From: Candidatus Peribacteria bacterium
GTDB lineage: Bacteria > Patescibacteriota > Gracilibacteria > Peribacterales > Peribacteraceae
Length of the DNA: 64,000 nt
Direction of reading: 5' to 3'
Assembly: GCA_041691135.1 (NCBI GenBank)
Contig: JBEPVF010000007.1
Coordinates: forward strand, 1-64,000
Numbering within the stretch: the stretch's first letter is position 1; each line of letters opens with the position of its first letter. Below, piece after piece: positions 30,908 through 33,899 of this stretch. The translations under genes were made by a program, and so were the position numbers. Below the pieces are notes generated by a model. That model ran no database searches, was not told where the DNA came from, and saw only the letters and a program-made list of their open reading frames with translations.

Positions 30908-31360
30908 ATGTCCAAGAAACTTTTTGCCCTCCTCGCTTTATCGACACTTGCTGTGGTTGCTTGCGGCACAGGTACGCCCTCCGCTCCGGATCAGACGTCG
31001 ACAGATACCACCGCTTCGACCAACGAAAGCGCTGCTGCGCAGAACAACTGGCAGCCGGCGAGCGATGGTACCTGGAAAGACGGCGATGGCTTGACGATGA
31101 AAGTGCAGGACGGTTTTCTGATGTCGAGCCAGGATGGCAAGACATGGGCCGAAGTGCCCGACAATATGTGGCAGGGTACCGATGGCAATTGGTACAAGTT
31201 CGATGCGCAGGGGATGGTGTGGGTGAGTCATGATCAGGGGAAGGTGTGGGCTGCGGCATCCAACAACTCTTGGGCCGGTGGGAATGACATTTCTTTCACC
31301 ATCAAAGACGGCCAGTTGATGCAGGGCAATACGACGGATCAGACGTCGAGCCACTCATAA
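30908..31360 (+). CDS. Lipoprotein with Trp-rich internal repeats
   Basis: VVAC lipobox; repeated S.DGKTW…W.G.DG.W units. Confidence 0.8.
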   Translation: MSKKLFALLALSTLAVVACGTGTPSAPDQTSTDTTASTNESAAAQNNWQPASDGTWKDGDGLTMKVQDGFLMSSQDGKTWAEVPDNMWQGTDGNWYKFDAQGMVWVSHDQGKVWAAASNNSWAGGNDISFTIKDGQLMQGNTTDQTSSHS

Positions 31361-31416
31361 TTGTCTTGAAAGACCGGAAGCGCTACGGTTCGCGCAGTTT
31401 CCTTCTCTCGACGTTC

Positions 31417-31881
31417 ATGTCTACACCTCGTCCACTTCTCTTGATTCTGACGCTTTCGGCTCTGCTTGTCGCGTGCGGTAAGTCGCTCCCGCAGGCAACC
31501 AGTACTCCTCCGTATCCGGTCGATAATTTCGGGGCAACCAGCGGAACGGGTGCAATGGCGAGGTCGCTCTTGCCGGGAGAAACCGGTTACATTGATTTCC
31601 AAGATGGAGCGGTTGGAAATGGCGAGAAGTCACTCCTGTTTTTCTACGCCAAGTGGGATCCGTTCTCGAATGCCAACGATGCGACCCTGCAAGCGTTGTA
31701 TCAGCAACAACCTCTTCCCATTCGCATCTATAAGGTCGATTACGATACGCAGACTGATCTGAAGAATCGTTACGGCATCACCCAGTCGAATACGTTTGTG
31801 TTGATTAATGCCAACGGCGATCCGCTCAAGATCATCAGTTATCCCAGCCAGGAGGATCTGAAGGTGCTGATTCAGGGATAA
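31417..31881 (+). CDS. Thioredoxin-fold lipoprotein lacking CXXC
   Basis: LVAC lipobox; LFFYAKWDPFS in place of WCPxC; YKVDYD, YGITQSNTFV. Confidence 0.8.
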   Translation: MSTPRPLLLILTLSALLVACGKSLPQATSTPPYPVDNFGATSGTGAMARSLLPGETGYIDFQDGAVGNGEKSLLFFYAKWDPFSNANDATLQALYQQQPLPIRIYKVDYDTQTDLKNRYGITQSNTFVLINANGDPLKIISYPSQEDLKVLIQG

Positions 31882-31971: not shown

Positions 31972-32214
31972 TTGACTAGAGATCCGTGCTAAGTTAATGT
32001 AATTATGTAACGGTACAAAGGTACAAATGACTATCCTCCTTTCACCCGTCGGCTTTTGGCGGCAGGGAACTCCCAAGCGGGGCTCTCTGAGGATCGTCTG
32101 ATAGACAATTCAGGTCAGTAGGGAGCTCTGCTTCTTGTCGAAGCGGGGCATTTGGGTGGTTCCACAGGGAATTCGCTCGGCTGCTGATCTGTGAAAACAT
32201 CGGAGGACGTAGAC
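31972..32214 (+). promoter_or_regulatory. Promoter and long structured 5' leader of the HPVTG/HWKFDP operon
   Basis: TTGACT-17-TAATGT; alternative pairings; 24-codon uORF at 32027-32101; GGAGG SD. Confidence 0.55.
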
Positions 32215-32853
32215 GTGACTAACCAATTCTTGATTTTGACAGGCTTCTCGCCGTACAAGTTCCATCCTGTTACCGGTTGCGAGCTTGACGCTCTTGTCCT
32301 ACTGGACCCCATCTATGGCGTGTTCGGTCAACCTGGAGACCCTCTGGATCCGATCATCTTTTTTGATGAAAAGGACGAACCGGATATCAGGCACTGGAAG
32401 TTCGATCCTCGCACGCGACACCCGTGGAAGCATCCGGAACTCCGCTCGGATTGGCCCAAGTTTCCCAGTTGCTACAGTGCGGAGCAGTTGGATCGCGGCC
32501 AGGCGATGATCATTCATCCAATCACGGCAGTACTGTTGAATCTGTTGCCTCGGTGTTACAGGTGTATCAATGACTACTCTGATCAGGAGATGAGAGTCGC
32601 GGAGCAGTTTCCCAACTTCCATGCACCAAGTTCTTTTCCTTGGGACCTCGACTACTGCGAAGAATCCATGCAGTTCGTCGAACACGAACATGGAGGGGGC
32701 AGGCAAAGAAAGCGTTACCACGGGCGCATTGGAACGGGATTCAATATGTACGAGCTGGTCAGTTCGTACCCGTACCACTGGCTTTACGATCCGTTCACAG
32801 GCAGATACCTTCAAGAAGAGGAGGTCGAAGGTGACAAGCATCAAGCTGGTTGA
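32215..32853 (+). CDS. Hypothetical protein with two HPVTG/HWKFDP domains
   Basis: FHPVTG…HWKFDPRT and HPITA…HWLYDPFTG; GGAGG SD before GTG. Confidence 0.8.
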   Translation: MTNQFLILTGFSPYKFHPVTGCELDALVLLDPIYGVFGQPGDPLDPIIFFDEKDEPDIRHWKFDPRTRHPWKHPELRSDWPKFPSCYSAEQLDRGQAMIIHPITAVLLNLLPRCYRCINDYSDQEMRVAEQFPNFHAPSSFPWDLDYCEESMQFVEHEHGGGRQRKRYHGRIGTGFNMYELVSSYPYHWLYDPFTGRYLQEEEVEGDKHQAG

Positions 32854-33199
32854 ACACGGTATCTTCCCGCGAGCATATCGCTCGTTCCAGCTCGACTGGG
32901 GCTTGGATATGCTCCGGCATCCGGTGACGGGTGATGTGCTGTCTCGTCAGATGCCGTACGATCACGATAAGCATGTTTGCTACATCCGTATCCTCCATAC
33001 TCGTGGGGGATGGAAAGCGCCGACCGTCTCTTACCGATTCCTCCCACGAATCGGCTTGGGTCAGGACGTCTCTAAAGGCGATCTCTTCCCGGCACACTGG
33101 AAGTTCGATCCCTACGAGCAGGAAAGTACGGTGGCGGCAGTGTCGACAGTTATTGTGACCACGACTGCTGTGCCGATGGGTGGTTGGGCGATGGACTGA
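32831..33199 (+). CDS. Hypothetical protein with an HPVTG/HWKFDP domain
   Basis: HPVTG…FPAHWKFDPY; GAGGAGG SD before GTG. Confidence 0.8.
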   Translation: MTSIKLVEHGIFPRAYRSFQLDWGLDMLRHPVTGDVLSRQMPYDHDKHVCYIRILHTRGGWKAPTVSYRFLPRIGLGQDVSKGDLFPAHWKFDPYEQESTVAAVSTVIVTTTAVPMGGWAMD

Positions 33200-33215
33200 G
33201 AAAGGAGAATCCGCA

Positions 33216-33515
33216 ATGCAACGAGTCTTCACAGACTGGTATAGGCCTCGTCAGATGATCCAGGGAATCGGGCTTACTTTCCATCCCATCGTGGGCTTGG
33301 AACTTAAGGACCTGGTCTATCATGCCATGGACGGTCGTTTGTCTCTTCGGAATCCAGGGAACTGGCTCATGAAGCAGGGCCTCTCTCCCTCAGCGTGCGA
33401 AGTCATCGAGGAAATCTACTTTCCATGCATCACCGACGGAAGGGATGACTACACTGTGGGCAGCCCATACCCGCAGCACTGGAAGTTCGATCCCTTCACA
33501 GGTGAACCTTTGTGA
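33216..33515 (+). CDS. Hypothetical protein with an HPVTG/HWKFDP domain
   Basis: HPIVG…YPQHWKFDPFTGEPL; AAGGAG SD. Confidence 0.8.
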   Translation: MQRVFTDWYRPRQMIQGIGLTFHPIVGLELKDLVYHAMDGRLSLRNPGNWLMKQGLSPSACEVIEEIYFPCITDGRDDYTVGSPYPQHWKFDPFTGEPL

Positions 33516-33523
33516 GGAGAACA

Positions 33524-33835
33524 ATGCACAGACGACGTTTTCGTGTCCCCTATCGTGCTGCCGAGCTCAATGCCGGCGTCACCATGGCGTACCACCCGGT
33601 GACCGGGCGCAAGCTCCGGTCACTCAGCTACTGCGATCGATGCTGTTGTTACTACTTCATCGAGCGTGAGTATGAGCCCGGCCTTTCGATTTTCGGTCTT
33701 GATGCGACGGTTACCGAAACGAAAGTATATCTGCCGATGATTAGTGTCGGCCAAGGCGTCGATGCCGATGAGCTCTACCCGGCTCACTGGAAGTTTGATC
33801 CGTTCCTCGGAGCATTGATCAATGACTCCGTGTGA
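33524..33835 (+). CDS. Hypothetical protein with an HPVTG/HWKFDP domain
   Basis: HPVTG…YPAHWKFDPFLG; GAGGAG SD. Confidence 0.8.
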   Translation: MHRRRFRVPYRAAELNAGVTMAYHPVTGRKLRSLSYCDRCCCYYFIEREYEPGLSIFGLDATVTETKVYLPMISVGQGVDADELYPAHWKFDPFLGALINDSV

Positions 33836-33861
33836 ATCCTCCGATAACCCTTCAGTAGCCT

Positions 33862-33899
33862 ACCCCTCCCATTGTCCATTCGGACCGGGAGGGGTTTTT
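33862..33899 (+). terminator. Intrinsic terminator
   Basis: ACCCCTCCC…GGGAGGGGT plus T-tract. Confidence 0.8.

Follow-up and report, generated by a model that had tools for sequence, protein, structure and literature searches.

A probably tryptophan-linked operon of paralogous small proteins in a Candidatus Peribacteria bacterium, bracketed by an rRNA-type boxA and a long-range stem

An array of four paralogous genes in a Candidatus Peribacteria genome, lying within the 64,000-nt stretch of DNA that we analysed (the window), stands behind tandem TrpR-type operators, a leader with a tryptophan codon, and a boxA-like motif, and its coding part is closed end to end by a long-range stem. Judging by these elements, all of them absent from the initial annotation, the operon is very probably controlled by tryptophan starvation, and the same elements indicate when its products would be made. 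Its cargo is a new protein family, under a control circuit that belongs to a known kind but departs from it in an rRNA-like way that is new. On balance we favour, with modest confidence, a tryptophan-starvation operon whose products are binding modules that act on partner proteins and help the cell to obtain tryptophan. It is an open question how bacteria of the candidate phyla radiation (CPR) detect and exploit their hosts, and there is no handle on the majority of their small proteins; here the family occupies the trp operon's position in auxotrophs, which specifies the condition in which its expression, partners, and phenotype should be sought.

The array and its protein family

The array comes from contig C7 of a 1.74-Mb, 92%-complete genome and runs on the forward strand. 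ORF1 (32215..32853, 212 aa) carries a degenerate first domain, of which the motifs alone are left, and a second domain that is complete and has a long insert; ORF2 (32831..33199, 122 aa) has one domain and a C-terminal GGW..D tail; ORF3 (33216..33515, 99 aa) and ORF4 (33524..33835, 103 aa) have one domain each. A purine-rich Shine–Dalgarno (SD) site stands 5–15 nt 5' of every gene, and the motifs HP.[TV]G and HW.[FY]DP occur jointly nowhere in the genome except at the array. A profile of 97 relatives, from which all window sequences were left out, was run on the 33,650 frames of the genome and gave 88.2 bits for ORF2, 87.9 for ORF4, 83.3 for ORF3, and 54.8 for the second domain of ORF1, the next-best frame scoring 13.6 bits. 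The four genes and five domain copies of the initial annotation are thus confirmed by frames, SD sites, motif pairs, and an independent profile, and its description of the first copy as keeping the core motifs alone agrees with the two motif-sized pieces that the profile sees there (6.0 and 8.4 bits, singly not significant). Just 5' of the array (window positions 30911–31881) lie two likely lipoprotein genes, one with Asp-box-like repeats and one thioredoxin-like.

A profile of the five window domains retrieved 110 clusters at 50% identity, consisting of the four window proteins, one chance match, and 105 relatives, all of an unannotated family. The family consensus is R.YT..ELDRG.GM.FHP..G..L..L.Y, a hairpin, frequently with a G-W tip, and then L.RIGDG.....GD.YP.HW.FDP.TG..L; the near-invariant positions are His, Pro, Gly, Ile, and Asp. 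Searches of Pfam, PHROG, NCBIfam, and PDB sequences gave no credible match to the window proteins, and 100 family members had no match in Pfam, in agreement with the earlier remark that the family was not recognised. Within the window's Peribacteria family it is present in 26 of 200 genomes, one of them with a weak partial match; searches found it in 0/260 other members of the class, 0/389 other members of the phylum, and 0/4 genomes of the window's own genus. Thirteen of the 14 named loci belong to Peribacteria or Peregrinibacteria, the fourteenth being without a profile match. Occurrence is patchy within genera, the copies per genome range from one to five, and at least 6 of 109 family proteins are two-domain fusions. 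The window copies are 26–40% identical to one another, no closer than to members in other genomes, and are scattered rather than grouped in a quick, poorly resolved tree in which most forks are open; for these reasons we regard them as old paralogs and not as a recent expansion.

The stretch between the two motifs had been called a hypervariable core. It does vary in length and sequence (33–97 residues, median 52, in 101 domains) but is not free of motifs: the family retains L..L.[YF]D....F as well as a Trp where the hairpin turns at its tip (76 of 111 middles). Diversifying selection, implied by the idea of a diversified specificity array, finds no support. The one unsaturated pair of seven had a dS of 0.10 and a dN of 0.01 in middle and flanks alike, which places dN/dS far below 1, though as the sole informative pair it has little power; the other six pairs, with dN values under 0.85, were at or close to saturation. 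The sequence comparisons point to strong purifying selection.

The AlphaFold2 model of ORF4 (pLDDT 92.5) predicts a clasp of two knuckles holding a beta-hairpin, and in the model of the second domain of ORF1 the clasp reached pLDDT 94–96 and the insert 47–76, with the same pattern of strands. The two models agree with each other on a predicted shared fold and with the proposal that a conserved clasp presents a variable insert; this confidently modelled fold matched no characterised one among solved or viral structures. The suggestion that the knuckles derive from a zinc ribbon fared less evenly. As in Zn_Ribbon_1 (PF13240) or a double zinc ribbon, there are two x-P-x-x-G turns at like spacing and, in the model, beta-bridged hairpins, and Cys occurs occasionally in ligand positions; unlike a zinc ribbon, the family has His/Thr and Asp/Thr in place of Cys, an insert of 33–97 residues, and further conserved motifs. 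Across about 100 domains, position 4 of the first knuckle is T37 S15 N13 C8, and in the second knuckle position 1 is D80 C8 and position 4 is T81, with Cys at each of two knuckle positions in just 8 domains. The four-Cys/His ligand set of a zinc ribbon is missing from the two knuckles, and no zinc-ribbon profile or fold matched, for a 25-residue knuckle pair that may be too small to score; an Atlas neighbour with Zn_Ribbon_1 at 0.79 is a lead only. The knuckle-like turns thus stand, and the ancestry is unproven.

Operators, leader, and genomic slot

In 21 of 24 relatives the family lies directly 5' of pnp, mostly after rpsO and a trpR-like gene; two of the others are cut by a contig end with trpR upstream, and one is inverted beside trpR-rpsO. 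The same rpsO-trpR-pnp slot holds the family in some relatives and trp biosynthesis genes in others. The array studied here is flanked by a thioredoxin-like gene and glnA and has lost its adjacency to pnp; in its genome, trpR is found on C1 and rpsO-pnp on C8, where the slot is filled by a different small ORF preceded by the same operator.

A 20-bp palindrome stands 5' of the slot genes in relatives. We trained a matrix on 16 sites of 13 relative loci, and its top two matches in the whole array genome, starting at 32006 (26.0 bits) and 31998 (24.9 bits), form two overlapping operators 8 bp apart at 31998..32025. The genome holds 10 matches at 11 bits or more and three shuffled genomes 6–15, while at 17 bits or more the shuffled genomes hold 0, 1, and 0. 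A site was found in 18 of the 24 relatives within the fetched DNA, 5 of these being outside the training set, and none in the fetched DNA of the other 6; the exact pattern occurs in 72 of the 200 family-level genomes and its reversed control in 0. A candidate −35 box, TTGACT (31972..31977, forward strand), is placed so that its −10 region would overlap the operator, and relatives have TTG[AC] about 20 nt 5' of theirs; a simple scan called neither a forward-strand promoter nor a terminator at the array.

Compared with the motifs in PMC9413887, the operator agrees with that of TrpR but not with that of HisR in Firmicutes. The proteobacterial HisR motif in the same paper is similar, and the assignment of tryptophan as the ligand therefore rests on other evidence. 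Among the matches listed for 30 operator loci, the same operator stands 5' of anthranilate synthase, TrpD-like, and TrpB-like genes in relatives (L094, L091, L076, L054/L013, and L123), and other cargo includes a B3/4 domain and a racemase. The array genome encodes a TrpR-family repressor (C1:204084-204317) that exceeds the cut-off of PF01371, as in 189 of the 200 genomes including this one, and can be aligned with E. coli TrpR across the ITRGS helix. It falls below the cut-offs of the TrpR equivalog TIGR01321 (58 vs 67.25 bits) and of the YerC/HisR model (37.8 vs 42.2) and scores higher with the TrpR model.

Further operator matches may be recorded. The third-best in the array genome (C11:8711-8730, 22.0 bits) has no clear gene assigned. 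In genome G094 (L081 and others) the regulon is expanded, with 12 matches to the operator and 8 to the TrpR family. In L127, of the same genus, a weak operator-like site of 13.0 bits lies about 60 nt after the thioredoxin-like gene, in the corresponding position, at a locus with no family gene and is possibly a remnant after loss of the array.

Two nucleotides past the operators begins a 24-codon leader peptide (32027..32101, forward strand), whose single Trp codon is at position 11 (32057–32059). It runs into an attenuator (32075..32149, forward strand) in which segment 3 (32113–32133) can pair with segment 2 (32075–32094) or with segment 4 (32140–32149), so that the 2:3 and 3:4 helices are mutually exclusive. 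A model built from 18 leaders matched 24 of 150 genomes. In 25 of 27 loci, and in 9 of the 10 held-out ones, an in-frame TGG begins 27–31 nt ahead of the helix anchor, against a chance of 0.128 for any TGG in a comparable window, a test that is not fully blind because the model included the Trp codon region and so favoured TGG among its matches. The 2:3 helix is 95.4% paired, with two-sided change in 9 of 18 pairs (28 rows, in an alignment fitted to the structure), and its covariation was matched by 0–1 of 500 shuffles and by no slid register. The 3:4 hairpin appears in the minimum-energy fold of the window (z −3.2), and when segment 2 is covered its probability is at least 0.49 in 24 of 25 loci; with a ribosome stalled at the Trp codon, an equilibrium model lets 2:3 win in 15 of 25. 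The window's own switch does not flip at equilibrium (2:3 at 0.10, 3:4 at 0.60), and the order of synthesis would therefore have to decide. The U-tract after 3:4 is weak in the window and clear in some loci, and none of this attenuator was found in the one-gene loci L025, L026, and L028. At many loci the tail of a long gene serves as the leader, its Trp being 5 codons before the stop, and in L123 the same attenuator leads into an anthranilate synthase gene.

These parts suggest two layers of control. When tryptophan is present, the TrpR-family repressor would bind the tandem operators over the promoter, and any ribosome passing the leader Trp codon would let the 3:4 hairpin form and stop transcription. 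When tryptophan is short, a ribosome stalled at that codon would favour the 2:3 helix and read-through; conservation establishes the codon position and the 2:3 helix, and the switching is inferred.

The slot and its control elements also serve other genes. A second unannotated family, with no match in Pfam or NCBIfam, occupies the position next to the TrpR operator in the rpsO-pnp slot (L062:1463-1804, L092:1157-1501, and L087:1139-1501). The first of these is C8:47962-48306 of the array genome, where the operator is present and the terminal Trp absent; in relatives the last codons hold the attenuator Trp codon, a gene of 110–200 aa doubling as leader peptide. The attenuator-boxA cassette further carries unrelated small ORF families (L107, L116, L117, L119, L120, and L122) without a Pfam match, several of them ending in GGW..[DE], and one of them also occurs fused to the C-terminus of the array's own family (L012, P0081). 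Finally, a hairpin with GGGTTTAC and GTGAATCC arms is kept 5' of pnp in L016, L017, L018, L019, L022, L025, and L053, and the same hairpin is found at C8:48380-48432 in the array genome; we take it to be, probably, the RNase III site of pnp autoregulation, with a role as in E. coli.

boxA and the stem around the coding cassette

Just before the first SD site lies a boxA-like motif (32186..32201, forward strand) as seen in 16S rRNA leaders. The same boxA stands 125–245 nt 5' of 16S rRNA in 4 of 4 leaders, from the array genome and three relatives, and in these leaders it marks the start of the processing stem. In 5 of 5 genomes the genes for NusB and RNase III are neighbours, the nusB-rnc pair of the array genome being at C2:220-1369. 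In the same five genomes Rho scored below the cut-off, and protection from Rho therefore cannot be the purpose of boxA.

At the array, the coding cassette is closed by a stem whose 5' arm (32179..32187, forward strand) is directly 5' of boxA and whose 3' arm (33852..33860, forward strand) lies between the last stop codon and the terminator. With an 11-nt arm from the window, the best duplex between 32209 and 34330 falls at 33848–33861, and with a 16-nt arm that site is not the best. In 13 of 19 loci, two of the 13 being near-copies, the best duplex among approximately 1,000–2,500 windows each falls −10 to +25 nt of the last stop. Cognate arms of 17 loci formed duplexes with a mean of −17.3 kcal/mol, compared with −13.3 kcal/mol for swapped arms, and none of 20,000 permutations was as good. 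Across these loci the stem shows two-sided changes and G–U pairs, the latter indicating that it acts as RNA. It fails in 2 of the 17, L017 and L018, and was not found in L002; elsewhere it is 9–13 bp long, and its arms are 0.3–1.7 kb apart. The stem is followed by an intrinsic-terminator-like hairpin with a T5 tail (33862..33899, forward strand, −24.7 kcal/mol), which gives a place to the single terminator of the initial annotation; the simple scan left it uncalled because the hairpin exceeds the scan's loop limit.

In rRNA transcription, Nus complexes keep the 5' end attached to the polymerase and assist RNase III in processing (PMC8632103; bioRxiv 10.64898/2026.03.17.712431). By analogy with the rRNA case, the boxA of the array may load NusB/E, so that the 5' arm stays with the polymerase until the last gene has been transcribed and the 3' arm emerges. 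The closed stem could then release the Nus complex before the terminator, or be cut by RNase III, or both, and the outcome would be a short pulse of cassette mRNA. In the papers searched we found no mRNA cassette of Rho-less cells that is enclosed by a covarying end-to-end stem together with an rRNA-style boxA; with this combination, the role of Nus factors as RNA chaperones could be tested directly on a transcript other than rRNA.

Function of the proteins and likeness to known systems

Searches with the relatives' proteins (tblastn) found none of trpE, trpG, trpD, trpC, and trpB in the 92%-complete array genome, nor was there a trpA, and the bacterium is, judging by this gene content, likely unable to make tryptophan. 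Over the 200 genomes, trpA exceeds its cut-off in 29 and the family is present in 26 with an overlap of 0, about 3.7 being expected (hypergeometric P 0.013; related genomes are not independent, which makes the exclusion weaker than this value says). Both types are found, in different species, within genera g91 and g62, and two family genomes, L013 and L027, retain an anthranilate synthase-like gene.

Under the starvation-operon reading, the hairpins would let the deeply diverged domains, of which a genome has one to five, bind different targets, and these would most likely be those of the host on which the cell feeds, as suggested by the trpA exclusion and by the variability of the family. Host-side targets are favoured because factors for the cell's own conserved machines should be less divergent and less patchy; members are in fact 25–45% alike and are absent from 174 of the 200 genomes. 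We nonetheless propose a host-directed binding role tentatively. The family proteins have no clear signal or membrane segment (1 of 109 above a hydropathy of 1.6), which leaves export unexplained, and they are rich in Trp (2.74% vs 1.12%, a 2.4-fold enrichment), which would be costly under starvation and counts against our best explanation.

The main rival reading keeps the same Trp control, and the absence of signal peptides would suit it: the proteins would serve as an intracellular hunger response similar to anti-TRAP, binding the cell's own machinery of translation or RNA decay (ribosome, TrpRS, PNPase) or the repressor, and so slowing growth or guarding fidelity. The B3/4 domain and the racemase behind the same operator would also fit, as intracellular amino-acid quality control, and so would pnp as the usual neighbour and the GGW..[DE] tail, which 22 of 60 tails share with unrelated cargo proteins and which resembles a docking motif. 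The adjacency to pnp, however, follows from the slot and is lost in the array genome, and the divergence and scarcity just described are unlike those of factors for conserved targets; we consider this reading rather unlikely.

It seems quite improbable that the genes are a defence, immunity, or antitoxin set, the specificity array of the initial annotation, for which Trp shortage is merely a stress cue. One to five diverged tandem copies, patchy within genera, and the predicted display of a variable hairpin on a fixed clasp would agree with such a set, but PHROG gave no match, no relative of the family was found in viral contigs, which also leaves a phage or anti-defence origin unsupported, and the loci listed show no adjoining cognate toxin; a fixed chromosomal slot and a dN/dS far below 1 in the informative pair argue in the same direction. 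We give equally little credence to the proteins being passengers or Trp-codon timers in a vacated trp promoter, with ribosome stalling or a Trp store as the selected trait: the Trp enrichment, the filling of the same cassette by unrelated small ORFs, and the long upstream ORFs that act as leader peptides with a Trp codon 5 codons before the stop are set against a confidently predicted fold, near-invariant residues, and apparently strong purifying selection, which indicate a folded, working protein.

Taken to its full extent, the starvation-operon reading would be that an auxotrophic episymbiont lineage has swapped trp biosynthesis for an array of host-directed binders of a new fold, which make the host give up tryptophan and are made in a timed pulse from a pre-rRNA-like mRNA that is loaded through boxA, closed by a Nus-chaperoned stem, and excised or set free at that stem; as a whole, this scenario is unlikely.

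Among known systems, anti-TRAP, like the family proteins, has two knuckle-like motifs and a link to Trp starvation. Unlike it, the family lacks the zinc ligand set, is about twice the size, and has a hairpin insert and several diverged paralogs; no sequence or fold match between the two was found in PDB. As described in the consulted parts of PMC11255114 and PMC4027176, the Bacillus subtilis protein (RtpA) is small, is induced by uncharged tRNA-Trp, and binds another protein. The occurrence of trp biosynthesis genes in some Gracilibacteria is noted in the part of PMC9166423 used here. With subscription papers and supplements outside its scope, our search of the literature found nothing on this protein family, on TrpR in Peribacteria, or on Trp attenuation or leader peptides in Patescibacteria.

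The control region resembles that of the E. coli trp operon in its TrpR-family repressor, its 20-bp operator, and its tandem sites 8 bp apart, and resembles trpL in having a leader peptide with a Trp codon and 2:3 and 3:4 helices that form as alternatives; in relatives, true trp genes stand behind these same elements. It differs in that the cargo is non-biosynthetic, the leader has one Trp codon, trpR is elsewhere in the array genome, a whole upstream gene is often the leader, and a boxA and an end-to-end stem follow. These last elements resemble rRNA operons, as the boxA is that of the four 16S leaders and a 5' arm beside it pairs with a distant 3' arm; unlike in rRNA operons, they bracket an mRNA, and the stem, approximately half as long as that of rRNA, stops where boxA begins.
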